NCBI GenBank assembly: GCA_048885535.1
Contig: JBHLLO010000080.1
Coordinates: 1 to 13,382, forward strand
DNA: 13,382 bases
Source of the DNA: Candidatus Hermodarchaeota archaeon
Lineage (GTDB): Archaea > Asgardarchaeota > Lokiarchaeia > Sigyniarchaeales > SOKP01
Direction: 5' to 3'
Below are positions 1 to 13,382 of the stretch, in pieces. Under the pieces are notes generated by a model. That model ran no database searches, was not told where the DNA came from, and saw only the letters and a list, made by a program, of their open reading frames with translations. The position numbers were made by a program, and so were the translations under genes. Position 1 is the first letter of the stretch. The number at the start of each line of letters is the position of its first letter.

Positions 1-21
1 TGATGATAAATAAGGATTATA

Positions 22-516
22 TTAAGTCAGTTTTGAGCCACAATATTCACAAAACCTAAGGTTTTCAGCATCTTTTAAGTTACCCCCACACGTAGGGCAA
101 AAATTTGGTTTCTCAGGAGCAGGAGAGCCTTTTTTAATAACCTTATACTCTATTGGTTCTTTGGATTCTTCAAAATATTCAAATTTATGACCACAATTAT
201 CACAAAAAGTTATACCAACACGTAAGTATTGATTACAATTTGGGCACATTGTGATAAGTTTTAAACCACAATTCCTACAATATTCTGAATAAATGCTAAT
301 AGGGATATTACATCTAGGACAATGCTTTTGAGGTTCCCACGAAAAACGAATAATAACGAGTGCAATTATTATTATGATTATAATGGGTATGATTATGGAT
401 AAAACAAGTAATACGTCAAAAAATAATAGAGAGATCAATAAGGAAAATATAAAAACTCCCAATAGGAGGAGGGCTATAATTGAAAGGGATTTTCGGTTAT
501 AGTTTCTATAACTCAT
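22..516 (-). CDS. Membrane-anchored multi-zinc-ribbon (double zinc ribbon-like) protein
   Basis: 164 aa. Long hydrophobic N-terminal stretch (~aa 12-57, probably two TM helices), followed by six CxxC pairs: CPRC/CRNC, CPNC/CDNC, CPTC/CEYC. Confidence 0.8.
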   Translation of the reverse strand: MSYRNYNRKSLSIIALLLLGVFIFSLLISLLFFDVLLVLSIIIPIIIIIIIALVIIRFSWEPQKHCPRCNIPISIYSEYCRNCGLKLITMCPNCNQYLRVGITFCDNCGHKFEYFEESKEPIEYKVIKKGSPAPEKPNFCPTCGGNLKDAENLRFCEYCGSKLT

Positions 517-580
517 GATAGGAGATCATTAATATATAATTAAAATTCTTTATTTTCTTGCCAAAAAAGATTATGGTTAT

Positions 581-748
581 CTATTTAACAGATAATTGTT
601 TTGTATTACAGTATGGACAGATTTCTGTGCCTGATTTTATATTTTCTCCACATGCAAAACATTTAGTGTACGATTCTCCATATTGAATTTTCTGGTCAAT
701 GAAATCTTTTGAAGTGATTTTACTATTTTCAAATTTTTTTTCAACCAT
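581..748 (-). CDS. Small zinc-ribbon protein (55 aa), not in the ORF track
   Basis: Manual translation from ATG 748 to TAG 581-583: MVEKKFENSKITSKDFIDQKIQYGESYTKCFACGENIKSGTEICPYCNTKQLSVK. Has a CxxC-x10-CxxC motif and is co-oriented just upstream of the 22-516 zinc-ribbon gene. Confidence 0.8.
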   Translation of the reverse strand: MVEKKFENSKITSKDFIDQKIQYGESYTKCFACGENIKSGTEICPYCNTKQLSVK

Positions 749-925
749 GTTAACTCAATTAATAATAATATATTAAAAATTTGATTGCTATTTAAAAAAA
801 ATATCAAAGCTCTATAAAAAAAATGGAGTCCAATTTTTATTTTATTTAAATTTGAAATAATGACAAAATTTAAGAGTTTAAATTATTTTCTAATAATATA
901 ACAAAAAATTCAAAAATTTGCTAAT

Positions 926-933
926 GGAGTGGA
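926..933 (+). promoter_or_regulatory. Shine-Dalgarno-like site for rpS30e
   Basis: GGAGTGGA ends 6 nt before the ATT at 940. Confidence 0.55.
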
Positions 934-939
934 TTAGAT

Positions 940-1143
940 ATTCCCGGTTCGCACGGCTCATTAACAAAAGCAGGAAAAGTAAAACAACAGACTCCAAAAA
1001 TTGAGAGAACAGGAGTAAATTCATCAAAGAAAAAATCTCCTCGTGTCAGATTTAGAAAATTATACACTAAAAGATTTGAGGAAGGAAAATATAGTGGTCA
1101 ACGTGATTCTCTTGGCGCTAAACGTGCTACTTATTCACGTTAA
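940..1143 (+). CDS. rps30e: 30S ribosomal protein S30e (eS30), probable ATT start; not in the ORF track
   Basis: Translation (M)PGSHGSLTKAGKVKQQTPKIERTGVNSSKKKSPRVRFRKLYTKRFEEGKYSGQRDSLGAKRATYSR contains the diagnostic HGSL-x-x-AGKV-x-x-QTPK motif. There is an in-frame TAA at 922-924 and no in-frame ATG/GTG/TTG before the motif, so ATT 940-942 is the inferred start. Confidence 0.92.
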   Translation: MPGSHGSLTKAGKVKQQTPKIERTGVNSSKKKSPRVRFRKLYTKRFEEGKYSGQRDSLGAKRATYSR

Positions 1144-1151
1144 TTAATTTT

Positions 1152-3044
1152 TTATTCGATTACACCAATTTTTCTTAATTGATTAACTAAAACTTGGCTT
1201 TGTTTATAGTAATAAGTTGAGTTATTACTATCTTTAGCTAACATATCAAAAAAATCACACATTAATAAATTCCATCTTATAGCTCTCTTTATTCCCGGTA
1301 TTTCCTTTACATAAACAGCTAATCGACTTTCAACACCCTTAAGCAGAAATAAAGCTTTTCTTGAATCAACACGGTGATGAATGTAAAATTCAGCTAGCTC
1401 TAATATGAGATCATAAAAAATATGTTCATACTTCTTATCTTCAAAATCTAATCCAACAGCATCAATTCCAGATCTTAATAATTTCTGGGCTTGAGATAAA
1501 TTCCCAAAATTCTTATAATATTTTGCTCGAAGAAGATAATAATTTAATTTAACTTTGATAGAATTGGTAGTCAATTGAAAAGCCTTTTTAAGAAAAACTT
1601 TTGATTGAGTAATTTGACTTTGGGATAAATAAATCAAACCTATATGAAGATATGACATTCCGAGAAAATCTTCTGTGTTGATTGAATGTTCTTCCTCTTT
1701 TTCTAAGAATTTAATCATAATTTCGAAATGTTTCATCGCATTAACAAAATCTTGTCTGTTAAAATACCATTTTCCTAATTTATAGTGTATTGCTATAATA
1801 TATTGGATGGGTACTTCTCCTGATTTTGCTACTGCGAGAGCATTCTGCAAATAATTAAGAGCAATCTCTTCACGGTTTAGTAATGAAGCAATCTTTCTTA
1901 GTTTAAGTAGAATTGAAACAACTATTTTCCTTTGACGATTTTTGTTAAATACTTTTAAAGATTTATTGAGTAAATCTGTTGCTTCATCAAAGTGATAGTT
2001 CTTTATTAGTTCTTCTGCTTCGGTATATGTAATCAGAGACTCAATGGTTTCAAAGTTAACAGGTGGTGAATTTAAAAGATCATTATGAATAGGATATAAT
2101 TCTGATTTTGAGATTAGGCTTTCATAGTGAAGTGGAGAAAAAGGAAAGTTATGTTGTTCTAACTCAAAATCGGTGTTATCTAAATCTCTTGTAGGTCTTA
2201 AATTTAAAAAATCATTTTGAACAATTTCTCCTAAACTGATTATTTCTATCACAGAATTTAATAGCGTTCTAGAAAACTTTATCCAATTGCCTATAGCTTC
2301 ATTCAATTTAAAATCAGATTCATTAAATAAATTAAGCATTATATATGGAGTGTAGCAATCAAAAAAGGAACGAATGTAGAATTTATTGTACTCTAAATCT
2401 TTAAGGTAAGTAAAGAATCCTTTTTCTAAAATGAAGAATTCATCAAATTTCTCATCATTCGAAAAGAAGAGCGTCTCAGAAGCTCTAAGCTTTGGAACAC
2501 CTCTTCCCAATTCCCAAGGCAATTTGAATGTTGGGTGCAATCCAGTACTTTTTATTATCTTTACAAAATCTGCTACATAGGAATTGTCAAATTCATTAAA
2601 CTTTTCTCGTTTATTGAATAAAGATATCCTTATTCGATTTATTCTAGAATTCTCGTTTTCATCTTTTATTGGATCTGGCATTAAAATATTTAACAAATCG
2701 AGTAAATCGCTTTCTTTCCCTTTAATTGGAAAGTTGTGTTCTATGGAAACTCGCATAGCGAGATCTCTGAGCATTCTCATAACATAAAAAATAGTATTAT
2801 TAGTGCCTTGATTTAGATCCCAAAATTTAAATGCGATAGAGACTCTAAAAGTGACTACTTCAAAAGGTACATTAATTCGTATTGGTAAAAAGACTGGTAG
2901 TTTTATAGTAAATAACAAAGTTTTTTCCTTATTAATACTGTATCTAAAATAGTTTTTAGTATACCCATAGATTTGCCATCCGTTCTTTTCTATGGCAGTT
3001 CTCAGATTTGATAGTTCATTATTAGAAAGGGGACGAATTGACAT
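1152..3044 (-). CDS. Large protein with C-terminal tetratricopeptide-repeat (TPR) region; N-terminal half unassigned
   Basis: 630-aa ORF. TPR-like helix pairs from ~aa 335, e.g. IHYKLGKWYFNRQDFVNAMKHFE, SYLHIGLIYLSQSQITQSKVFLKKAFQL, YYLLRAKYYKNFGNLSQAQKLLRSG. Confidence 0.75.
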   Translation of the reverse strand: MSIRPLSNNELSNLRTAIEKNGWQIYGYTKNYFRYSINKEKTLLFTIKLPVFLPIRINVPFEVVTFRVSIAFKFWDLNQGTNNTIFYVMRMLRDLAMRVSIEHNFPIKGKESDLLDLLNILMPDPIKDENENSRINRIRISLFNKREKFNEFDNSYVADFVKIIKSTGLHPTFKLPWELGRGVPKLRASETLFFSNDEKFDEFFILEKGFFTYLKDLEYNKFYIRSFFDCYTPYIMLNLFNESDFKLNEAIGNWIKFSRTLLNSVIEIISLGEIVQNDFLNLRPTRDLDNTDFELEQHNFPFSPLHYESLISKSELYPIHNDLLNSPPVNFETIESLITYTEAEELIKNYHFDEATDLLNKSLKVFNKNRQRKIVVSILLKLRKIASLLNREEIALNYLQNALAVAKSGEVPIQYIIAIHYKLGKWYFNRQDFVNAMKHFEIMIKFLEKEEEHSINTEDFLGMSYLHIGLIYLSQSQITQSKVFLKKAFQLTTNSIKVKLNYYLLRAKYYKNFGNLSQAQKLLRSGIDAVGLDFEDKKYEHIFYDLILELAEFYIHHRVDSRKALFLLKGVESRLAVYVKEIPGIKRAIRWNLLMCDFFDMLAKDSNNSTYYYKQSQVLVNQLRKIGVIE

Positions 3045-3106
3045 AAAAATAGTCGAATTGATTTACTTAATAAACTAATAAAGTTCAATAATTTTAATCT
3101 TTTCTT

Positions 3107-3146
3107 TAAGTATTAACAAGTATAAATACTTGGATTTACTTGTTAA
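3107..3146. promoter_or_regulatory. Symmetric phased repeat array over a TATA-like core in the divergent TPR/MIT intergenic region
   Basis: AAGTA at 3108 and 3118 and TACTT at 3127 and 3137 are symmetric about 3124.5 and overlap TATAAATA (3121-3128). TTAACAAGTA (3113-3122) and TACTTGTTAA (3137-3146) form a perfect 10-bp inverted repeat. Confidence 0.45.
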
Positions 3147-3182
3147 CTTTGAATATTTATAAAATGATAATTTCAATTTATA

Positions 3183-3821
3183 ATGGATATCGCTGAATTT
3201 AATAAGGAATTAAAATACAGAGTTGCTAAAGCAACTGGGCTTGAAAATAATAATAAAATTGAAGAGGCTATAGATGAATGGGTTGCAATTACAGAAATGG
3301 TAATAAAGACGTCTAAGACACCTAATCTAGAATTTTCTTATCGATCAATGCTTATTGATAAAACAAAACAAATTATTGAGCACATTAAAAGTTTAAAAAT
3401 AAAACTTTCAGGAGAAATTACAGCTATTGAAGATATTTCTGAATACAAAGAAGAAGATGATATCCAATCCGTCAAAGCTGAAGATACAATCGAATCTAAA
3501 GAATTTAATGAAGAAGTTACTGAAGTAGATTCTCAAGAACCTATAGAAACTAAAATCATTGATAAAAGTGAATTTAAAAATCTCCCTAAAGGATTTAAAG
3601 AAATTGAAGCTTCAAAAGATTTCGAAATTATTACACCTCATGATAAAGATTATATAAAGAAAATCTTATCTGAAGACAAACCAGATATGAATGTATTTAA
3701 ATTTAAAAAAGGAGAAAATCAAAACCGGATGGATCAAAACAAAACAATTTGTTTTGCATGCGGCATAGAGTTGGCATTTGACACAAAAATATGTCCTCAA
3801 TGTGGAACAAAACTAAAGTAG
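3183..3821 (+). CDS. MIT-like domain protein with acidic linker and C-terminal zinc ribbon
   Basis: aa 1-75 resemble the MIT three-helix bundle pattern (VAKATGLENNNKIEEAIDEW...YRSMLIDKTKQIIEHIKSLK). A D/E-rich linker follows, then C-terminal CFACG-x9-CPQCG. Confidence 0.65.
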   Translation: MDIAEFNKELKYRVAKATGLENNNKIEEAIDEWVAITEMVIKTSKTPNLEFSYRSMLIDKTKQIIEHIKSLKIKLSGEITAIEDISEYKEEDDIQSVKAEDTIESKEFNEEVTEVDSQEPIETKIIDKSEFKNLPKGFKEIEASKDFEIITPHDKDYIKKILSEDKPDMNVFKFKKGENQNRMDQNKTICFACGIELAFDTKICPQCGTKLK

Positions 3822-3855
3822 TATTTTCTCTCACTTTTTAAATTCTATATTAAAT

Positions 3856-4557
3856 TTAGGTCAACTTGATAATAATATCAAAATAAGCATCATCTTTAGA
3901 AGAAGAAGGATGTATTTCTTTAATGTTACATACTACTTTCCTTTTTAACTCTCTTTCAAGTATTCCTTCAGTAATTCCACAAATTATATAAAGATGATAA
4001 TCAAAATCGGTTGTATCAAATAAGAAAGGTGAATTTTTAAATCGAAATGTGGCGCTTTTTCCCTTAGGATCGATTCCTATAATTGAAATCTCAATATCAG
4101 GTGAAAATGGGTCGTAAACTGGATAAAAACTTTTAAAGCTCTCTAGATGTACCCTAGAAATTGGGTTTTCTTTCAAACTTTTCATTTGTTTAAGAATGCT
4201 TTGTCCGAAAGTAAATTTTATATCTTTAATAGCTTCTTTTCCGATTTTCTTTGCTAAACCTTCTGTATCAGGAATATATTTTTTGAATCGTGAAATTAAA
4301 GCTTTATAGTAAGAAATAGCTAATTCTAATGGGATATAACTTCTTTTACTTGTAAAATATAATTTATAGGCCCCTATTTTCTTACTGAAAATTTGATTTT
4401 TAAGTTCTAAGATAGATACATATTTGGATATAGTATTTCGAGAGAATTTGGTAAAGTTAGCTATATCTGAAACAGTTACCCCACCAGGATTATCCCTAAT
4501 ACATTCAAGAATTACAAATTCATGATTAATAGTATTCTTTTTGTTGGTCGTAAAAAT
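3856..4557 (-). CDS. Winged-helix transcriptional regulator with C-terminal V4R/HNOX-like ligand-binding domain; probable ATT start (ORF track shows only the last 109 aa)
   Basis: The frame stays open upstream of 4185 to an in-frame TGA at 4561-4563 and encodes a clear wHTH: ILECIRDNPGGVTVSDIANFTKFSRNTISKYVSILELKNQIFSKKIGAYKLY. The C-terminus has a V4R-like pattern (FRFKNSPF...YIICGITEGILERELKRKVVC). GGTGA followed by 3 nt precedes ATT 4557. Confidence 0.8.
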   Translation of the reverse strand: MFTTNKKNTINHEFVILECIRDNPGGVTVSDIANFTKFSRNTISKYVSILELKNQIFSKKIGAYKLYFTSKRSYIPLELAISYYKALISRFKKYIPDTEGLAKKIGKEAIKDIKFTFGQSILKQMKSLKENPISRVHLESFKSFYPVYDPFSPDIEISIIGIDPKGKSATFRFKNSPFLFDTTDFDYHLYIICGITEGILERELKRKVVCNIKEIHPSSSKDDAYFDIIIKLT

Positions 4558-4599
4558 TTTTCACCATATTAAGGTATTTAATATTATTCAGTGTTTTTT

Positions 4600-4617
4600 G
4601 AAAGAAATATTTATATA
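4600..4617 (+). promoter_or_regulatory. Candidate archaeal BRE/TATA promoter (possibly bidirectional)
   Basis: Purine-rich GAAAGAAA followed by TTTATATA (4610-4617) in the divergent intergenic region between the regulator and the tandem surface-protein genes. Confidence 0.45.
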
Positions 4618-4632
4618 TTAATCTATCAAATA

Positions 4633-4672
4633 ATCAATATAATAAAATATTGATCAATAATATTGTTGATCA
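4633..4672. promoter_or_regulatory. Overlapping palindromic operator candidates
   Basis: ATCAATAT-N6-ATATTGAT (4633-4654, perfect arms) overlaps TGATCAATAATATTGTTGATCA (4651-4672, 22-bp palindrome with one mismatched pair). Confidence 0.55.
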
Positions 4673-4692
4673 TTAATTATCAAGTTTAAAAT

Positions 4693-6366
4693 ATGTCTAA
4701 AAAATCATTAATTATATCTGTGATATTACTCGCTATTGGCTCAGGTTTAGTTCCTACAGGAGTTTTACTTGAAGATTATATAAATGAGATGGTTATTAAT
4801 TCTCTTGACGAGGGTCTTTTAGGAATAGAAGAAGAGGCGATTCCTTTAATTGAACCAATGATAAAAGAGAAGGGAATCCCTCAAACACTTAGAGGCATCA
4901 GAGATTTGGGAATTCCTATTCTTGAAGATATGGTAGAAGTGACCTTCGTAGCGGTATTAATTAATACATTTGTTAATACAGGGGGAGTTGTGTTTAGCAC
5001 ATTCTTTCCTCCTATAGGTAGAGAAAGTTTCTTTAATAATGACACAACAGGAGTTTGGGTTATTTTTAGCGGTATTTCCACCTATCACGGGGTCCCACTT
5101 AACTTTACAGAGGATGCTCAAAATAGGATATTGTACGGTAATAGCACAACAATCCCGGGTTATATCTCTGGTATTCAAGGCCTTCTCAACGATACTTCGA
5201 CAGGTGAGGGTGTAGCGAACTTTTTAGCTCAATTTTCTGCCGCCAATTCAAGTGGGACTGATAAATTAAATGAAACTATGCAAGAGAATTATAACTGTAC
5301 ATGGTATCAATTAACTAAATTAAATGAATATATTAGTGCTTATCTTATAGACCTTGTAATACCGATAATAATTGCCAATAACTTACATGTGGATTATATG
5401 CCACAATTAGCAGGGCTACTTTCGGTTAATGCTATTGCCAAAGCATTATTCATGGAACAATGGGCAAATGGAACTGTTCTAAACGAGACTCTCTATGAAG
5501 GAGGGATCGATTTTAGTGAAATGCTTGAGAATGTAAATGAAACTTTAGTTGGGTTTGAAGTGGGGCGTATTAATCCTTCAAATATAACCCGAAAATCAGC
5601 TTATGCATTATTCAATGAAATAGATTATCCTAATGCCATAACAAATGACAGTGGAATTGAACAGTGGGTTAATGCATCTAAAAATGATACGATAAAAATA
5701 TCTTTAATGAATGAATTTAATCTTACTCTATCTCAAATAGATATGATCCTTTTTTGGTTATTCGAAGAATCATTTCAGGATAATATTGTTCCTGAACTTA
5801 TGAAACTTCCTCCTCCAGATGGTGTTGGTATGAATATTACTGAATATGCAAGAGTTCTATTTTTGGAACAGTGGACAAATGGAACGGTAGTAGGTGAAAT
5901 TATTTATCCTTATGGATTTCCGCTCCCATTAAAAGCTGCTACCATCTATGGGTTTGAAATTGGGTATGTCGATCAATCTCACCCTGTGATACCTTCCAAT
6001 ATATCTTTAGTATCAGCAGAGTCTCTATGGGACGTCACAAATCCCTTTTCATTGGTAAACAGTAATGGTTTAAAAGAGTGGTATGATGCATTAGCCAATC
6101 CTAATTCTGCTGGTGCTTATGGATTACAAGTGGCAAATAAGCTTAATAAAGATCAAATAGCCATGATATTCGCTTGGTTACCAAAATTTAGGGATAACGT
6201 TATGCCTTTTCTTGCACAAGAAGACCAAAATCTTCCCAGTGATTCAACATCATTTGCTAATTCAATAGAGCTTGGAATGATTATTCCAGGTGGAATTTTG
6301 ATTGGAATTGGTTTAGTAGGTATAGTGAGTAAAATTTACCTTAGAAGGAAGGAAAATATAATCTAA
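4693..6366 (+). CDS. Two-TM cell-surface glycoprotein with internal ~137-aa repeats (paralog A)
   Basis: 557 aa. N-terminal and C-terminal hydrophobic helices with short basic tails; about 18 N-x-S/T sequons by hand count. Repeated motif EQW[AT]NGT...GFE[VI]G...P[ST]NI[ST]...G[IL]xxW...QIxMIxxWL. Confidence 0.8.
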   Translation: MSKKSLIISVILLAIGSGLVPTGVLLEDYINEMVINSLDEGLLGIEEEAIPLIEPMIKEKGIPQTLRGIRDLGIPILEDMVEVTFVAVLINTFVNTGGVVFSTFFPPIGRESFFNNDTTGVWVIFSGISTYHGVPLNFTEDAQNRILYGNSTTIPGYISGIQGLLNDTSTGEGVANFLAQFSAANSSGTDKLNETMQENYNCTWYQLTKLNEYISAYLIDLVIPIIIANNLHVDYMPQLAGLLSVNAIAKALFMEQWANGTVLNETLYEGGIDFSEMLENVNETLVGFEVGRINPSNITRKSAYALFNEIDYPNAITNDSGIEQWVNASKNDTIKISLMNEFNLTLSQIDMILFWLFEESFQDNIVPELMKLPPPDGVGMNITEYARVLFLEQWTNGTVVGEIIYPYGFPLPLKAATIYGFEIGYVDQSHPVIPSNISLVSAESLWDVTNPFSLVNSNGLKEWYDALANPNSAGAYGLQVANKLNKDQIAMIFAWLPKFRDNVMPFLAQEDQNLPSDSTSFANSIELGMIIPGGILIGIGLVGIVSKIYLRRKENII

Positions 6367-6392
6367 GAAAAATTTATCATTGATGTTAGGAA

Positions 6393-8033
6393 ATGTCAAA
6401 ACGAATTGTAATTGCATCAGTTCTGTTGGTTGTAATGGGCTCTGGTCTAATTACTGGTGGTATCTTAATTAAAGATTATATTAATGAACAAGTCGTTAAT
6501 TCTGTTGATGAGGGTTTATTGGGGATCGAAGAGGAAGCCTTACCGATGATTGAATCAATGATAGCAGAATTAGGTATACCTAGAACACTTAGGGATATTA
6601 GAAAGATTGGATTAACAGAAACCGAAGCAATAGTTAATGCAACTTTCTTTATGTTTCTAATTAATATGACTTTACATGAGCCATCTGTATTAGGGGTTGT
6701 CCCTTTAGAGCTATTATTTGATCGTTGGATTCAATGGGTATTAATTATTCCTGTTACTTACAGTTCATCTCTGCAAGGAATGGGTTATCCTCCCATTAAA
6801 GGGATTTCAGAATACCATCAACAAAATCTTTGGTATGGAAATGCTAAATATTTTTTGATCAATGGAGCGGATACACTTCCAGGTTTAGTGGGTAATAATA
6901 CATTAGGTACGGGTGTTTTAGAATTTCTTGAATTATATGATAATGCAAATGGAAATCCAATTTTAGAACAAGAGCTTGCTGTTGGTTATAATACGACTTG
7001 GATTAAACTTACTAAATTAATTGAATATTATAGAGATTATTTTGTTCCTATAGCAATCCCAATGTTAGTAGCAAATTTATCTACAATTATGCCAAAATAT
7101 TCTGGGATGAATACAAAGGACATCGCAGAGATGTTTTTCTTTATGCAATGGGCAAACTGTTCTTTATTTGAAACAGGTATAGATCTGAGCTCAATGGTAG
7201 ACGATTTGGAGGAACCACTTTATGGATTTGAAGTTAGCAGATTTAATCCTTCGAATATCACACTCAGTTCGATTTACTCACTCTGGGATGATAATGACAT
7301 AAAGGCAATCACCAATGACACTGGAATTAATGAATGGATAATTGCTATCAACAATATAACAAAACAACAAGAGTTAGGGGAGTATTTTCGTTTACAACCC
7401 TACCAAATAAGTATGTTGTTAAATTGGTTATGGGTAGAGTCATTTAAATGGAATATTGTCCCTGTACTTATATTACTTCCACCTCCGCTTGGAGAGGGAA
7501 TGACTTTATCGGAATTTGCTAGAAATATTTTTTTAGAAGTTTGGACCAATGGAACGGCTGATGGTAAACGCTTATATCCATATGGCTTTCCGCTCAAATT
7601 AAAAGCAGGTACAATATATGGATTCGAAATTGGTTATAGAGATCAATCTCATCCAGTTATACCCACTAATATATCATTAGAATCTGCAAAGTCTCTTTGG
7701 AATTTCTCAAATCCATATTCATTGGTAAGCAGTATCGGTTTAAAAGATTGGTATTATGCTTTAGATAATCCTAATTCTGCTATTACTTACGGCCTGCAGT
7801 TAGCAAATCAACTTACTTCTAATCAAATAAAAATGATCTTTGTATGGTTACCAAAATTTCGGGATAACATCATGCCATTCCTTGCACAAGAGGATCAAAA
7901 TTTACCGATGGACTCAACGACCTTAGGAAATGTGATAATGATTGGAACTATAGTTCCTGGAGGTATTTTAATTTCGCTCTCTATTACTGCTATAAGTAGA
8001 AATTTAGGCAAGAAAAGAAGATTAAAAACGTAA
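6393..8033 (+). CDS. Two-TM cell-surface glycoprotein with internal repeats (paralog B, tandem duplicate)
   Basis: 546 aa, colinear with 4693-6366 (shared DEGLLGIEEEA, YPYGFPL, DQSHPVIP, WLPKFRDN, FLAQEDQNLP). About 12 sequons; 26-nt gap suggests an operon. Confidence 0.8.
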   Translation: MSKRIVIASVLLVVMGSGLITGGILIKDYINEQVVNSVDEGLLGIEEEALPMIESMIAELGIPRTLRDIRKIGLTETEAIVNATFFMFLINMTLHEPSVLGVVPLELLFDRWIQWVLIIPVTYSSSLQGMGYPPIKGISEYHQQNLWYGNAKYFLINGADTLPGLVGNNTLGTGVLEFLELYDNANGNPILEQELAVGYNTTWIKLTKLIEYYRDYFVPIAIPMLVANLSTIMPKYSGMNTKDIAEMFFFMQWANCSLFETGIDLSSMVDDLEEPLYGFEVSRFNPSNITLSSIYSLWDDNDIKAITNDTGINEWIIAINNITKQQELGEYFRLQPYQISMLLNWLWVESFKWNIVPVLILLPPPLGEGMTLSEFARNIFLEVWTNGTADGKRLYPYGFPLKLKAGTIYGFEIGYRDQSHPVIPTNISLESAKSLWNFSNPYSLVSSIGLKDWYYALDNPNSAITYGLQLANQLTSNQIKMIFVWLPKFRDNIMPFLAQEDQNLPMDSTTLGNVIMIGTIVPGGILISLSITAISRNLGKKRRLKT

Positions 8034-8044
8034 AATCAAGTAAA

Positions 8045-8590
8045 CTATTTCTTTTTATTTTTAATATTTGTGTATTTTTTAATTGCTCTTTCTCTCCAAA
8101 TTGTATTCCATCTTTTAAATCCGGATTTTACATACTTCTCTCTTCTATAGAAATTATAACAAACCCAATTATATAGGATAAAATATCTTTTTACTCCACT
8201 TTCTTTCGTTAGTTTTTTAGATTTTATGCCCAAATCATTCTTTAAATGAGAGATAAATTTACCTTCAATTGCATCTTGTAGTTTCCCTTCGATAATTGAA
8301 TTTTCATAATTAATACCCTCTTCATAAAAGTAGTTTCTAACTTCATCAAAAATATTTCCTCGACAAAGTACTATCTTTTCTTCGTCTTTATTAAAGTTTA
8401 ATTCCCTTAAACCTTCCTTAACTAATTCTAACGTTCTTTTATAAGGTGCCTTATTTTTCCAATTTTCATTTTGAAATAGCTCTACTGGCAGTGTTTTGAA
8501 AATTATTTGTCCAGTTTCTTTTCTTAATAAGCCAATAAATGCGTTCCCAACTATGTCTCCAGTCCCAGCATCATCAATTTCAATCGTCAT
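8045..8590 (-). CDS. RNase HII/HIII-like (RNase H fold) protein, atypical
   Basis: N-terminal IEIDDAGTGDIVGNAFIG resembles the type-2 RNase H first motif (GIDEAGRG / GSDESGKGD). ATG at 8590 (MTIEIDD) is preferred over TTG at 8608. Confidence 0.55.
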   Translation of the reverse strand: MTIEIDDAGTGDIVGNAFIGLLRKETGQIIFKTLPVELFQNENWKNKAPYKRTLELVKEGLRELNFNKDEEKIVLCRGNIFDEVRNYFYEEGINYENSIIEGKLQDAIEGKFISHLKNDLGIKSKKLTKESGVKRYFILYNWVCYNFYRREKYVKSGFKRWNTIWRERAIKKYTNIKNKKK

Positions 8591-8610
8591 TTTAATGCAT
8601 GATTTCAAAA

Positions 8611-9990
8611 TTATTGTAAAAAGTGTTTATTTTTATCCTCAATTTCTGATCTTCTTTTTCGCATTAATTCTCTAAATTGTTTAGCTTCTTTAGGATAATA
8701 ATAGTATGTTACAATCCAAAATGTTCCCCCTAATAGATTTATAAGCAATACTAATGAAACTGAAAATGGTAATAATGAGATGTCTTGTTCTATCAATGAA
8801 GATAAGACTAAATTTCCAATAATTGCACCAATATTTACCATTACACTATTAAATGCATTCGTGGTATTTCTTACTTCAGGAGCACTTACTTCTGAATATA
8901 TCGCAAATTGATTACCTACTGAGAAGTTTATGAAGAAATATCCCATAAAACCTAAAATTATAAAGATAATCCAAGAAAATGTAATTTCAATTATGGTCCC
9001 TGTAAAAAAGGGTAATAAGTAAAATCCTAACAAACATAATGAACCAAGTACAACTCCTATAAATGAAAAAATAACACGCCCTTTCAATTTTCCTGAATTA
9101 TAGTATTTATCTCCTAATCTCCCTCCAATAATAACTCCTGGTAAGCCTCCTGCCCCAGATATTAGATAAAGAATAGAGGCATATAATTCTGAGCCACCAC
9201 CGCTAATTTTTATACCCAAATAAAAAATACCCCATAATGCAATTGTAGAAATTGCAATACCTTGACATAGTACATAAAGTAAAACACTTAGGACGGATTT
9301 TTTCTTAAATAGGGTGAGTAGATTACTAAAAGTAATTTTATAATTATATTCAATTGAAGCTTTAAGGTCAATAAACTCGGGTTCACTACTAGCTCTTTTA
9401 GGGTTAACAGCTTTTAACCCATAGATGGATAACGGTATTAAACCTAGGAAGAATCCAGCCCCATATGCATATCTCCATCCTCCAGATCCAAGATAGGTTC
9501 CCAAACTTCCACCAAGAATTACTCCAACTCCAACACCTAAAGCTAAACTGACCTGCATTGTTCCGTATTTTTTAGCTCTATCTTTAGGTGGAAAGAAATC
9601 ACCAATGATTGAATACCCTATTGGTAAAAATGCTCCCGATCCAATAGCAGCAATAGAGATAAATATTAAATAGAAAACATAATTAACAGCTAAGGATGCT
9701 AAACCATAACCAATAATCCAAATGATATTGGTATAAAAAAATAGCCATTTCCGTGGAATTTTTTCTGAGATTTTATCGCAAAAATAGCCAAAGAATAATG
9801 AGCTTACTATAGATATTATATAAAATGCAGCTATTGACAATCCAATAGCAAATTCAGTGGTTCCAGTTAAGAATAATATTAAGTTATCCAAATTAGCAGT
9901 TAAAACACCCGTACAGTAAAAAAGGGTCAAATACAAGAACCATATTGAACGAAAAGTAGTTAGTGCGATTTTACTTTTAGTATTTGCCAT
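8611..9990 (-). CDS. Major facilitator superfamily transporter
   Basis: About 12 hydrophobic segments. Motif A-like GYFCDKISEKIPRK and GRLGDKY, plus IIGDFFPPKDRAKKYG. ATG at 9990 (MANTKSK) is probably the start; GTG 10002 is the alternative. Confidence 0.9.
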   Translation of the reverse strand: MANTKSKIALTTFRSIWFLYLTLFYCTGVLTANLDNLILFLTGTTEFAIGLSIAAFYIISIVSSLFFGYFCDKISEKIPRKWLFFYTNIIWIIGYGLASLAVNYVFYLIFISIAAIGSGAFLPIGYSIIGDFFPPKDRAKKYGTMQVSLALGVGVGVILGGSLGTYLGSGGWRYAYGAGFFLGLIPLSIYGLKAVNPKRASSEPEFIDLKASIEYNYKITFSNLLTLFKKKSVLSVLLYVLCQGIAISTIALWGIFYLGIKISGGGSELYASILYLISGAGGLPGVIIGGRLGDKYYNSGKLKGRVIFSFIGVVLGSLCLLGFYLLPFFTGTIIEITFSWIIFIILGFMGYFFINFSVGNQFAIYSEVSAPEVRNTTNAFNSVMVNIGAIIGNLVLSSLIEQDISLLPFSVSLVLLINLLGGTFWIVTYYYYPKEAKQFRELMRKRRSEIEDKNKHFLQ

Positions 9991-10112
9991 AGAAGATATC
10001 ACTTATATGAAATAAATTCTGTTCAAAATGATAATAATATTATTGTATTGAGAATTATTTAAAAGATTATAGTTCTCATGAAAAACTCTTAATTATATCA
10101 TTTTGATTTATA

Positions 10113-10901
10113 ATGGAATTTGAAATTTTAGTTATAGGAAATGAAATTCTAATTGGAAAAACTCAAGACACAAATTCAAATTGGATGGCTAAAAGAATTG
10201 CAAAGTATGGACATAAATTAAAAAGAATAACTACTATTGGAGATGATATAAATGAGATATCATCATTTTTGATTAAAATCTTAAAACGAAAGCCAGATAT
10301 AATCATTACCTCTGGAGGACTTGGACCAACCTGGGATGATAGAACTTTAGAAGGTGTAGCTAAAGCATTGAATAAAAAACTTGAGTTAAATCAACATGCT
10401 TATAACTCAATAAAGAAAGCCTATGAGCATGCTTATCATAGAGGTCTTTTAAGATTAGAAGGAATGACTAAAGAAAGAGAAAAGATGGCTTATCTTCCTC
10501 AAGGATCGACACCCTTGCCGAATACAGTTGGTACTGCTCCAGGGGTTAAGTTAACCAAGGAAAATGTTAAACTTTTTATATTACCTGGTGTTCCAGCTGA
10601 AATGAAAGCAATGTTTAGAAACATTATAACACCAATGTTAAAAGAAAAACAAGGTAAATTTGTTGAGCAGAGTTTTCTCATTTCTAGAATTGGAGAGAGC
10701 CAAATTGCTCCTTATATCACCAAATTAGAAGAAAAATATCCGCAACTTTGGATAAAAACTCATCCTAGAATAGGATTATCTGTAGAAGTAGAGATTTCTA
10801 TTACCTGTTTCGATGTGGAGAATGGAGAGGAATTAGTTAATAAAGCTTTAAATGAAGCTAAAGAAATAGTTTTGAATTTGAATGGCATAATAAAACAATA
10901 A
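10113..10901 (+). CDS. cinA: CinA N-terminal / MoCF-biosynthesis-like domain protein (COG1058; competence/damage-inducible protein A-like, probable nucleotide pyrophosphatase)
   Basis: Motifs IGNEILIGKTQDTNSNW, TIGDD, SGGLGPTWDDRT, NTVGTAPG, LPGVPAEMKAMF and GESQIAP. No C-terminal PncC deamidase domain. Confidence 0.88.
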   Translation: MEFEILVIGNEILIGKTQDTNSNWMAKRIAKYGHKLKRITTIGDDINEISSFLIKILKRKPDIIITSGGLGPTWDDRTLEGVAKALNKKLELNQHAYNSIKKAYEHAYHRGLLRLEGMTKEREKMAYLPQGSTPLPNTVGTAPGVKLTKENVKLFILPGVPAEMKAMFRNIITPMLKEKQGKFVEQSFLISRIGESQIAPYITKLEEKYPQLWIKTHPRIGLSVEVEISITCFDVENGEELVNKALNEAKEIVLNLNGIIKQ

Positions 10902-10915
10902 TAATTTAAATTTCT

Positions 10916-10989
10916 AGATGCCACCTCGCATGTGGAATTCTCAATAAACTCTCACCATAAAGGTGTTTAGGTTTATATCACTGACATCT
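10916..10989 (-). ncRNA. Eukaryote-like SECIS element (cis-acting) in the selD 3' UTR
   Basis: Minus strand reads AGAUGUCA-GUGAU-AUAAAC-CU-AAA-CACC-UUUAU-GGUG-AG-A-GUUUAU-UGAG-AAUUCCACAUGCGAGG-UGGCAUCU. This gives an RUGAN/NGAN non-Watson-Crick core, helix II, unpaired AAA, an apical mini-stem and a closing helix I. Confidence 0.88.
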
Positions 10990-12018
10990 TTATAAATTTT
11001 GTATTTCAATATTTTCTATGTTTTCATCAACCCTAACAATTCCAGGTTTCAAAGAATCAATGGTTCCAATAATCCAATTCTTAATCCCTCTACTATAAAG
11101 TGTATTAGAAAATTCTTCTGTTTTAACAGGATCAATCACCATCAACATACCTCCCGCGGTCTCATGACAGGCACAACTATCAAAAGCATAACCTAATTCA
11201 GTTGAGAGCTCCTTTGATAGTTTTATAGAAGGAACTTTTTCTAGAATCGCTGATAAATTAGAATTTTGTAATAATTCCTTAGTATGACCCGCCAATCCAA
11301 AACCAGTGACGTCAGACATAGCATGTATGAAAGAGAAATCTTTGTAAGAATGTATAGTCTTTACTACATTTTGGTTTGACGTGGTCATAATTTCAATAGC
11401 AAAGTTTATAGATTTCTTTAACTCAACTTCTGAATATTGTTCCAACATTTCAGGGAAATCTTTTAAAATTCTGTATGCTGCCATTATTGCCTGAATTCCT
11501 ATTGGTTTTGTAAGGATTAATTTATCTCCATCTCTAACGCCTTGCTTTTTAATAATCAAATTCCTTTGGATATAACCAGACGCTTCTCCACCTATTAATG
11601 GATCCTGAGTATATATAGTATGTCCACCGACTATTTTAGAATTAATTTTGTTCTCCATAAAGTTTTTAATCCCTATAAGTATTCTTTCCGCAATATTCAT
11701 AGGCATATTAGTATTTATCCCTAGAAAAACTAACATCCCCGAAATTTCAGGCACATTCATCGCAAAAATATCGTTTGTCACATTGCATGCTGCAATTTCA
11801 CCTTGAATTTCTGGTTCATCTACGATTGGGGTGAAGATATCCAAATTTTTCACTAGAACTAAATCACTATCAGGTATCGGTAATACAGCAGCGTCCTCAA
11901 AGTCTCCAAGTATTCCTGCTTTCCGCAATAAATCTTCTAGACTATTTGGACCAAGTTTACATGATCAACCGTGTATTTTAACTTGTGAAGTAAGTCTATA
12001 CTCTTTCTTTTTTTCCAT
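10990..12018 (-). CDS. selD: Selenide, water dikinase (selenophosphate synthetase), selenocysteine-containing (Sec18)
   Basis: From ATG 12018: MEKKKEYRLTSQVKIHG-TGA(11965-11967)-SCKLGPNSLEDLLRKAG..., in frame with the 10990-11928 ORF (342 aa total). SelD motifs DIFTPIVDEP, GGHT, LILTKPIG, DVTGFGLAGH and ETAGGML are present. Confidence 0.96.
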
Positions 12019-12021
12019 ATC

Positions 12022-12028
12022 TCACCTC
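12022..12028 (-). promoter_or_regulatory. Shine-Dalgarno site of selD
   Basis: Minus strand GAGGTGA-GAT-ATG is a strong archaeal SD directly before ATG 12018. Confidence 0.85.
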
Positions 12029-12080
12029 GATGTCTTTTTTAATTTAGAGTAATTTTATTGTTTTTGTATAATCAACAAAC

Positions 12081-12194
12081 TATTTTTTCGAAGTTGATAT
12101 TTTTCGAAATTGCTAATTATATTTTAGTTTATCCATTTTTTCAATAAACTTATTGATGATTTCGATAAATCGAAACTGTTAGGAATAAACTAAA
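12081..12194. repeat. Cluster of direct and nested inverted repeats upstream of selD
   Basis: Tandem TATTTTT(T)CGAARTTG x2 (12081-12112). Outer inverted repeat TTTAGTTTAT (12123-12132) / ATAAACTAAA (12185-12194) encloses TCAATAA-AC-TTATTGA (12141-12156) and TTTCGAT-AA-ATCGAAA (12160-12175). Confidence 0.65.
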
Positions 12195-12200
12195 TTTTTA

Positions 12201-13382
12201 TTAGGGTAAGAGGAGATCAATTTTCTTTGTTGTTTTGCGAGTGATATCGAACGGATCTCTATAATACAGATTAAGCTTAATCTCATCTACAGTTGGATCT
12301 GCTAGGTTTTTCTCAATATTCCTGTCGATTTTAACAACATAATTAAATTTAAATACACTCCCAGACTTCAACTCACTAAGATACAAGTAGCTTGGAAAAC
12401 TCTCTTTCATAATAAACGTGAGATATGAAGGTATTTTCAACGAAATCTGGATTTCTCGAAATTCGAAATTTGTAGGGTTGTTTAATTTAAAATTTAAATA
12501 CATTTTATTACCTATTGTTTTTATATTTTTGAAAAAGAGTAGATCTTTAGCTTCAATAATATCATCTTCAAGTCGAGGTGAGTAGAGGTTTTCATTTATT
12601 ATTTTTGCATTTAGTTTTCCTTTATGAATGAAGTTTAAGATAATCTCTTTTAAATACTCAACTTCTAATTCTAAGTATGAGGCAAGGCTTTCTAAATTTA
12701 TTGGATTAATTACTTCTAAATAATATTTAATTTGGCTCAAATAAATTTTGCTATAACCCTTTTCTGAGAAGTTTTTAGATTTATTAATAAGTAATTCTTT
12801 TGCTGATACAAATTTAGTAATAAATGGTCTAATATATAAATTAAAAATGTCATTTCTCTCTTCAGCGACTTTACCAATTATATTGTCAATTTGAGCTTCA
12901 TAATCTTCGATAAAGTTTTGTATTTGCCTTGAATTCATTTCAATAAGTTTCTTTGCATCACGAAATTCACTCTTTTGAATAAGTGTATTTAATTTTAAAT
13001 TCAGTTTATCAAACCCATCATTAAATTTTTTAAAACCTTCGATGCCTTGGGTTATTATCGATTGAATATGCCCTTGAAATAATTGAAATCCTAATTCATT
13101 TTTGATTCCATTAACTTTTAATTCCTGTTTATCTTCTTTGGTCGTTTCTACGAAATAATTTACTATTTTGTCTTTTATTTGTTTTATTTTCTTATCTAAT
13201 TCACTTAAAAACTCTTGAATCTGGATTTTTGATTCAACCCATCTCCTTACTAAATCTTTAAATATCTCATTAAATTCTACATTATTTACTAAAATGTCTC
13301 TAATTTCATCATCAAGTCTAAATAGATAATTTCTTAATTGCGTAATTTGAGTGAGACCCTCTTCTATTTCTTTATCTTGGGT
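12201..13382 (-). CDS. 5'-truncated large helical/coiled-coil protein with PCI-like winged helix and C-terminal Ig-like beta-sandwich
   Basis: The frame is open from the window edge (148 extra codons upstream of 12938, no stop). PCI-like segment INPINLESLASYLELEVEYLKEIILNFIHKGKLNAKII, then a beta-rich tail (MYLNFKLNNPTNFEFREIQISLKIP...IKLNLYYRD). Confidence 0.75.
   Translation of the reverse strand, partial: TQDKEIEEGLTQITQLRNYLFRLDDEIRDILVNNVEFNEIFKDLVRRWVESKIQIQEFLSELDKKIKQIKDKIVNYFVETTKEDKQELKVNGIKNELGFQLFQGHIQSIITQGIEGFKKFNDGFDKLNLKLNTLIQKSEFRDAKKLIEMNSRQIQNFIEDYEAQIDNIIGKVAEERNDIFNLYIRPFITKFVSAKELLINKSKNFSEKGYSKIYLSQIKYYLEVINPINLESLASYLELEVEYLKEIILNFIHKGKLNAKIINENLYSPRLEDDIIEAKDLLFFKNIKTIGNKMYLNFKLNNPTNFEFREIQISLKIPSYLTFIMKESFPSYLYLSELKSGSVFKFNYVVKIDRNIEKNLADPTVDEIKLNLYYRDPFDITRKTTKKIDLLLP

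Follow-up and report, generated by a model that had tools for sequence, protein, structure and literature searches.

The window analysed here is a stretch of 13,382 nt (contig JBHLLO010000080.1, positions 1 to 13,382, of the Candidatus Hermodarchaeota archaeon assembly GCA_048885535.1; contig C80 of a 3.09-Mb metagenome-assembled genome (MAG) that is 91.6% complete), and it carries on its minus strand a selD gene with an in-frame selenocysteine (Sec) UGA codon and, directly behind the gene, the RNA element that is the subject of this work. The selD product scored 193.1 bits against the NCBIfam model TIGR00476 (cut-off 125) and contains the AIRS and AIRS_C domains. The first base of the element is the first base after the selD stop, and its core lies 984 nt downstream of the UGA (a first-pass annotation, made from the letters of the window, had put this distance at about 980 nt), which places the element in the 3′-untranslated region (3′UTR) of a gene with an in-frame Sec UGA. 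A convergent gene with a MoCF domain ends at 10901, leaving an intergenic gap of 88 nt, most of which the element occupies. It is very probably the Sec insertion sequence (SECIS) of the selD mRNA of Promethearchaeota (Lokiarchaeia), a eukaryote-like, type II element based on a kink-turn (k-turn) that would let the ribosome read the upstream UGA as Sec.

From the outside inward, the element consists of a 5-bp lower stem, a 2-bp canonical (C) stem that stacks on the lower one, a 3-nt bulge and tandem G·A/A·G pairs followed by U·U, and above this core stand the 6-bp helix II, an unpaired AAA and a 4-bp mini-stem. Pairing of CU (10970-10969) with AG (10952-10951) may extend helix II by 2 bp across a 1-nt bulge. 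On the 3′ side, a 3-nt linker (AUU) joins the C stem to a side hairpin whose loop carries a G at 10929. With this 4-bp hairpin branching from the non-bulged strand and the lower stem closing the whole, the predicted fold is a three-way junction. The first-pass annotation had located GUGAU at 10981-10977, UGAG at 10943-10940, the AUAAAC/GUUUAU stem, AAA at 10968-10966 and CACC-UUUAU-GGUG at 10965-10953, and each of these is found there; its account of the core, helix II, AAA and mini-stem holds, while the lower stem and the 3′ side hairpin, although inside its boundaries, had been left out of the description. The coordinates are collected in Table 1.

Table 1. Parts of the predicted SECIS element and the selD gene (positions in the window; RNA letters on the minus strand; columns refer to the selD 3′UTR alignment)
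Feature	Position	Strand	Pairing or basis
Whole SECIS element	10916..10989	-	74 nt; covariance model R1 and covariation
Helix I (lower stem), 5′ strand AGAUG	10985..10989	-	pairs with 10920-10916; columns 9-13 / 84-88
Helix I (lower stem), 3′ strand CAUCU	10916..10920	-	alignment and RNAalifold
k-turn C stem, 5′ strand UC	10983..10984	-	pairs with GA 10940-10939: U10984-A10939, C10983-G10940
k-turn bulge AGU, 3 nt (L1-L3)	10980..10982	-	A10982, G10981, U10980; the G of GUGA is L2
5′ core G-A-U	10977..10979	-	sheared G10979·A10941 and A10978·G10942, then U10977·U10943
3′ core U-G-A, then C-stem G-A	10939..10943	-	sequence, covariation and column counts
Helix II, 5′ strand AUAAAC	10971..10976	-	6 bp with GUUUAU 10949-10944; columns 22-27 / 52-57
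Helix II, 3′ strand GUUUAU	10944..10949	-	alignment and RNAalifold
Unpaired AAA between helix II and mini-stem	10966..10968	-	A in 83/83 at all three columns
Mini-stem CACC/GGUG with loop UUUAU (type II apex)	10953..10965	-	columns 34-36 / 45-47
3′ side hairpin CCAC-AUGCGAG-GUGG	10921..10935	-	in the non-bulged strand between C stem and helix I; columns 67-70 / 79-82
selD (selenide, water dikinase; selenophosphate synthetase)	10990..12018	-	342 aa; stop UAA 10992-10990
selD Sec codon UGA	11967-11965	-	residue 18, motif HGUSCK; sole in-frame UGA

Conservation and covariation in selD 3′UTRs

To compare the element among relatives, selD loci were collected from Promethearchaeota (formerly Lokiarchaeota). 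A search with the selD protein gave a selD-like match in 60 of 61 related genomes, with a single in-frame TGA in the matches listed, and a scan of named genome records gave 56 archaeal loci titled Promethearchaeota or Promethearchaeia (a few carried the depositors' labels Odin-, Hod- or Thorarchaeota); two bacterial loci were left out. Three incomplete matches were dropped, and 98 selD 3′UTRs of sufficient length were extracted, 88 of them distinct. A SECIS stood directly after the stop codon in all 88, type II in 83 and type I-like in five (L053, L056, L065, L067 and L071, in which the apex is a 9-bp stem with a loop of ~11 nt), and it lay beside Sec-selD in every orthologue and paralogue examined.

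The 83 type II UTRs were aligned (alignment A1), the five type I-like ones being left out. Twenty base pairs in five helices were paired in 96.2% of 1625 cells, compared with 28-45% when the 3′ partners were slid by 1-3 columns, and changes on both sides were observed in 16 of the 20 pairs. The observed covariation score, the number of paired cells and the double-change count were reached in none of 500 column shuffles and the number of further pair types in one of 500, a significance that is overstated by the non-independence of the relatives; the slid-partner control and the double changes are unaffected by it. Leaving the C stem out of the structure gave the same covariation outcome.

The pairing was high in each helix, with 93.3% of cells paired in the lower stem (3/5 pairs compensatory), 99.6% in helix II (5/6), 93.2% in the mini-stem (2/3) and 95.7% in the side hairpin (4/4). 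In the C stem, the pair beside the bulge (column 15/61) is C-G in 64 and U-A in 19 sequences and is unpaired in none of the 83, and the outer pair (column 14/62) is U-A in 75 of the 79 sequences with letters at these columns. RNAalifold, which was supplied with nothing but the alignment, recovered three of the helices (lower stem, helix II and side hairpin); of the 16 pairs that it predicted, 13 were compensatory. A1 also holds 39 G·U cells that would be A·C mismatches on the opposite strand, and the structure is therefore placed on the selD-sense strand.

Taken together, these comparisons show, at the level of sequence, an RNA structure under selection, both purifying and compensatory, and we regard the element as real because it is conserved and covaries among its homologues. 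The first-pass annotation had called it a eukaryote-type form-2 SECIS in the 3′UTR of an Asgard Sec-selD and had proposed covariation of the core and the AAA across such UTRs as the check; the compensatory pairs and the AAA present in 83/83 sequences bear this out.

We then built a covariance model, R1, from the 83 type II UTRs. In the window's own genome R1 had a sole match, at 10916-10989 (88.8 bits, E 2.2e-16; scoring covered only 150 of the 2570 first-look candidates). In a run over 151 genomes from the phylum, R1 matched in 23, namely the genome of the window and 22 of the 25 others of its family; outside the family there was no match in 125 genomes under strict filters, which is hence not proof of absence. 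Many genomes of the same genus have two Sec-selD paralogues in tandem (~60% identical), and a separate type II SECIS goes with each (for example L007, L008, L009, L010, L020, L021 and L024), and the window's genome shows one selD only.

The k-turn core and comparison with known SECIS elements

The core has the arrangement of a standard k-turn, with a Watson-Crick C stem, a 3-nt bulge, tandem G·A/A·G pairs and then the non-canonical (NC) stem, and it shares the bulge, the G·A and A·G pairs and the Watson-Crick C stem with Kt-7 and the box C/D k-turns. The U·U found in the window at 3b·3n is typical of box C/D k-turns. Throughout A1, G1b, A2b and A1n are invariant (83/83 each) and G2n is G in 78 and A in five sequences, giving a 3′ dinucleotide of GA in 78 and AA in five. 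The bulge is more variable: L1 is A in 57, U in 17 and G in nine, L2 is A in 72, U in eight and G in three, and L3 is U in 82 and G in one, so that the 5′ tetranucleotide reads AUGA in 71, UUGA in eight, GUGA in three and AGGA in one of the 83.

The GUGA of the window had been singled out earlier as a notable variant and as part of an ancestral-like element. It is a sporadic change (3/83) at position L2, and the closest relatives of the window have AUGA (selD 89% identical) or UUGA (84-87%); since the nearest relatives have these letters, the GUGA is a recent substitution at the variable L2, apparently a tolerated one, and not an ancestral feature. GUGA also occurs in two more distant selD loci, L130 and L136. 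The core of L128 (genome G044) is ACGA, with C at L3, and that of L130 (G037) is GUGA; both belong to a neighbouring family, and in both the closing stem is weak and the side hairpin is immediately followed by a U-run.

According to the available text of a study of k-turn folding, a Watson-Crick pair at 3b·3n blocks folding in ions alone, while G at 3n or C at 3b permits it (PMC4382518). In A1 the 3b·3n pair is U·U in 28 sequences, A-U in 28, G·U in seven and A·C in seven, and 3n is G in 13. With the status of U·U under the ion-folding rule taken from general background on k-turns, we infer that most of the k-turns in A1 would need a protein or a tertiary brace to fold.

Eukaryotic type II SECIS elements, such as that of SEPHS2, share with the element the location in the 3′UTR far from the UGA, the k-turn quartet, the unpaired adenines and the apical mini-stem. 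They differ in helix II, which is ~9-14 bp in eukaryotes and 6 bp (plus U·U) here, and in that the element carries a side hairpin on its 3′ strand, a branch that we know of in no eukaryotic SECIS, and has no match to an Rfam SECIS family. With the SECIS of Methanococcales and Methanopyrus the element shares an archaeal 3′UTR location; the euryarchaeal GAA_A bulge between G-C-rich stems is absent from it. A loose GAA_A match that straddles the selD stop (11012-10985, minus strand) has stems of A and U only and was judged to be due to chance.

The element falls, by its sequence and predicted fold, in a class that is already known, the SPS lokiSECIS or Asgard type II eSECIS-like elements (PMC4989117; PMC11227280), which the literature takes to be the SECIS of this family. 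LokiSECIS elements were described in Lokiarchaeota by Mariotti et al. 2016 (PMC4989117), and the shared features are the position near the stop of a Sec-selD, an AUGA-type core with a 3′ GA, a main stem that is short relative to other lokiSECIS, an extra apical stem of type II kind and unpaired adenines. The differences are the GUGA of the window and the covarying C stem, the closing lower stem and the 3′ side hairpin, which the text of that paper, as far as available, does not describe, although its Fig. 5 and S4 may show them. A short main stem is given there as a hallmark of the Loki SPS SECIS (PMC4989117), and the short helix II was thus no novelty when the first-pass annotation listed it as a notable variant.

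In a later analysis of more than 400 Asgard genomes (Huang 2024, PMC11227280), selD elements are stated in the text available to be mainly type II, with AUGA_GA as the main core and GUGA_GA in the selD of Thorarchaeia, so that GUGA too had been reported before; here it occurs, sporadically, in a Lokiarchaeia-type genome. The element shares with the type II elements of that study the GA_[G/A]A core, the upper stem, the A bulge, the mini-stem of 2-8 bp and the apical loop of 2-6 nt. For the core, 5′-GA...[G/A]A-3′ in the published pattern, the window has GUGA at 10981-10978 and GA at 10942-10941. For the upper stem (6-14 after NNGAN in the PatScan pattern p1, 7-15 bp in the text of the model) it has six Watson-Crick pairs plus U·U, at the short end of the range, and for the apex (a bulge of 4-12 nt and the mini-stem and loop sizes just given) it has CUAAA on the 5′ side and AGA on the 3′ side, 4 bp and 5 nt. 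The main text, in the part available, contains no third hairpin. Overall, the earlier interpretation is right in kind and its novelty overstated, and what makes the element of interest is its conserved three-way-junction architecture, not its GUGA or its short helix.

The side hairpin and the three-way junction

The third arm of the element is formed by the side hairpin, whose loop G (10929 in the window) is invariant in A1 (83/83) and stands in a Y-G-Y context, with U or C before it and C or U after it. To look beyond A1, we examined a distant set of 19 selD loci of the same class, with 37-50% protein identity. R1, run with filters off, gave full-length matches at the 3′ end of selD in these loci, 10/19 at E<=0.013 and 15/19 at E<=1, and a second covariance model, R2, built on the set of VhuD genes described below, added L130 and L128. 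An automatic parser recovered the full layout in 12/19, some of the hairpins that it chose being poor. On visual inspection, all 19 have a side hairpin after the C stem, usually with a loop that is GCAA, GCGA or GUGA-like, while the closing stem is weak in four of the 19 (L125, L128, L130 and L131) and helix II is ambiguous in L132.

The same arrangement was observed with a different selenoprotein gene. In the 3′ regions of VhuD orthologues (30/30), helix II, the C stem and the side hairpin were paired in 97.4% of cells, and a closing stem of at least 5 bp was present in all 30, with a mean run of 6.7 compared with 4.5 in shuffled tails. R2 found seven sites in the window's own genome at E<=4e-8, and by eye the side hairpin and the closing stem are present in all eight type I elements of this genome (the seven R2 sites and one on contig C58).

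A third helix on the non-bulged strand is also found in the k-junction of the thiamine pyrophosphate riboswitch. In a k-junction, by definition, this helix faces the loop of the k-turn directly, and the L7Ae of A. fulgidus did not fold k-junctions, as far as the accessible text goes (PMC10573300). The side hairpin of the window differs in beginning 5 nt after A1n (two paired and three unpaired), and by this geometry we would class the element as a k-turn abutting a three-way junction and not as a k-junction proper.

The alternative that deserves the most weight is that the side hairpin and the lower stem are an adjacent, separate module and that the k-turn arm alone acts in recoding. We consider this unlikely, although it remains the strongest of the competing explanations. 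It agrees with the published Asgard models, which in the text available need only the core, the upper stem and the apex (PMC11227280), and with the weak lower stem in four of the 19 distant selD loci by eye. The absence of such a branch from the eukaryotic SECIS elements that we know of fits it as well. However, the lower stem encloses both arms and covaries, the C stem, which changes from C-G to U-A and is paired in 83/83, physically links the arms, and the branch recurs in the VhuD SECIS (lower stem of at least 5 bp in 30/30) and, by eye, in 8/8 type I elements.

We hypothesize instead, as a tentative proposal that we hold somewhat short of even odds, that SECIS elements of Lokiarchaeia are obligate three-way junctions, in which a conserved hairpin, its loop being of the YGC(R)A type with the G invariant, breaks the C helix of the k-turn after 2 bp and a lower stem encloses both arms. 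The third arm may then be a determinant of function that is missing from eukaryotic SECIS elements. If functional, this arm could brace a k-turn whose 3b·3n pair suggests that ions alone would not fold it, or else provide a docking site for an archaeal SECIS reader (EFSec or a member of the L7Ae family) in the role that SBP2 has in eukaryotes. The published models of Asgard SECIS, limited to core, upper stem and apex, would then be incomplete, and the transition from archaea to eukaryotes would include the loss of the third arm. The available text of PMC4989117, PMC11227280 and a 2026 review (PMC13188914) makes no mention of a third hairpin or of a three-way junction in Asgard SECIS elements, although the figures and supplements may draw the arm (Fig. 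4C, Fig. 5 and S4 of Mariotti et al., Fig. S11 of Huang), and family-specific lower-stem pairs are mentioned for selD in the text of one of them (PMC11227280).

Probable decoding of the selD UGA, and other selenoprotein genes

In the mechanism that we propose, the UGA 984 nt upstream of the core would be read as Sec, with the Sec-tRNA delivered by the archaeal EFSec. The k-turn and the AAA would form the recognition surface, as in eukaryotic SECIS elements, and would recruit EFSec with its Sec-tRNA-Sec either directly, EFSec being the reader, or through another protein; these two options are considered because Asgard genomes are reported to be without SBP2, in the text available of two studies (PMC11227280; PMC4989117). 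The side hairpin might brace the kinked conformation or serve as a second contact site. The genome has the components that this mechanism calls on. A tRNA-Sec(UCA) is encoded on contig C73 (9476-9568, minus strand), SepSecS is beside it (8104-9261, minus strand; 385 bits), and a gene for an EFSec-like GTPase of 478 aa, which contains domain III of archaeal SelB (aSelB_III, PF21440), lies ~4 kb away (match 13823-14710, plus strand); the Sec machinery is thus clustered at C73 8104-14710. The genome also has a PSTK-like gene.

Several observations count against the element being a SECIS that recodes the selD UGA, in addition to the overstated shuffle significance noted above. Two of the machinery genes score below their equivalog cut-offs, the EFSec-like GTPase with 231.8 bits on the selB model (cut-off 242) and the PSTK-like gene with 166 bits (E 1e-48; cut-off 290). 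The minimum free energy (MFE) fold of the 94-nt region is other than the SECIS (z = -1.77; 11 of 200 shuffled sequences did as well), and in the 74-nt element the SECIS fold has -10.5 to -11.9 kcal/mol compared with -17.7 for the alternative fold. Rfam at gathering thresholds gave no SECIS match over the whole window, and at E<=10 it gave, over 10800-11100, no SECIS family, just snoRNA-like matches below threshold.

These observations can be weighed as follows. The nearest-neighbour energy model gives G·A pairs no credit, the SECIS fold, though not the MFE, lies within the published energy limit (below -5 kcal/mol), and the alternative MFE fold, in which the mini-stem and the side hairpin pair with each other, could not be adopted by most of the relatives; as the MFE fold is not conserved, folding of the single sequence was not taken as decisive. 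SECISearch3 is reported, in the text available, to miss Asgard SECIS elements (PMC11227280), and because published tools for eukaryotic and archaeal SECIS miss these elements, the Rfam null was not counted as disproof. The motif alone is not beyond chance in this AT-rich genome. A scan for the k-turn, stem and AAA pattern gave 210 matches in the 3.09-Mb genome and 91 in a reversed copy, and adding the side hairpin and the lower stem left 38 and 18, respectively; with so many chance matches, motif scans are unfit as a selenoprotein finder, and the covariance models R1 and R2 were used instead.

It is quite improbable that the hairpins are a structure of the transcript 3′ end, a terminator or stability structure between convergent genes that owes its conservation to that of selD, with the SECIS-like motifs incidental. 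The element does take up most of the 88-nt gap to the convergent gene, and a U-run comes right after the side hairpin in some distant relatives, such as L128 and L130, but the invariant positions are the SECIS determinants (G·A/A·G and AAA) and not the stems, the second selD paralogues retain the element despite quite different downstream sequence, and the window has no long U-run after 10916. More improbable still is that the element is a general binding site for a k-turn protein with no role in Sec decoding, for example a regulatory site for L7Ae or an sRNA of the C/D-box type. The textbook k-turn core and, as a consequence of it, a weak Rfam match to SNORD33 on the element (14.4 bits, E 9.5) can be cited for this reading, but the score is far under the gathering threshold of 44, and no D box CUGA stands beside the terminal stem, ahead of the lower stem's 3′ strand. 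The AAA never varies, which is also a trait of SECIS elements, and the element is bound to the stops of Sec genes (selD, 88/88 distinct UTRs; VhuD, 30/30).

As a SECIS, the element offers a concrete target for binding and reporter work, namely a defined RNA that combines a k-turn and its covarying C stem with an AAA that never varies and with a conserved third hairpin whose loop G is likewise fixed. To our knowledge, no SECIS-binding protein is known in archaea, and such work could show how SECIS recognition worked before SBP2.

With the machinery present and at least eight SECIS elements besides that of selD, the MAG appears to decode UGA as Sec, a matter of practical consequence for annotation, since genes such as selD, HdrA and VhuD would otherwise be annotated as truncated. 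The first-pass annotation had suggested the selD element as a seed for further selenoprotein genes; this expectation failed for R1, which found selD only. On contig C50 (5521-7969; locus L145, 522-2970), an HdrA gene of 647 aa with three in-frame UGA codons is immediately followed by VhuD/MvhD (146 aa, two UGA codons, PF02662), and the two share one type I SECIS located after VhuD, as published for Lokiarchaeota. On contig C58 (18140-18687; locus L146, 306-788, minus strand), an open reading frame (ORF) of 160 aa contains a Cys-Sec-Sec motif (GCUU), and its end lies 1 nt ahead of a type I SECIS that carries a side hairpin; the ORF matched no Pfam or NCBIfam family and is a candidate selenoprotein. 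A further SECIS-model match on contig C15 (29000-29077, plus strand; 42.6 bits) has AUGC instead of AUGA as its 5′ core, with a short ORF containing one UGA upstream, and may be either degenerate or an odd core variant.

Elsewhere in the window, the gene upstream of selD (12201-13382, minus strand, open at the window end) has a weak match to PCI (PF01399; 23.9 bits, cut-off 22), a domain typical of proteins of the eukaryotic proteasome lid, COP9 and eIF3. Two adjacent ORFs on the plus strand (4693-6366, 557 aa; 6393-8033, 546 aa) visibly resemble each other in an N-terminal signal or anchor sequence and share conserved blocks, which suggests a tandem pair of paralogues for a protein that is secreted or sits in the membrane.

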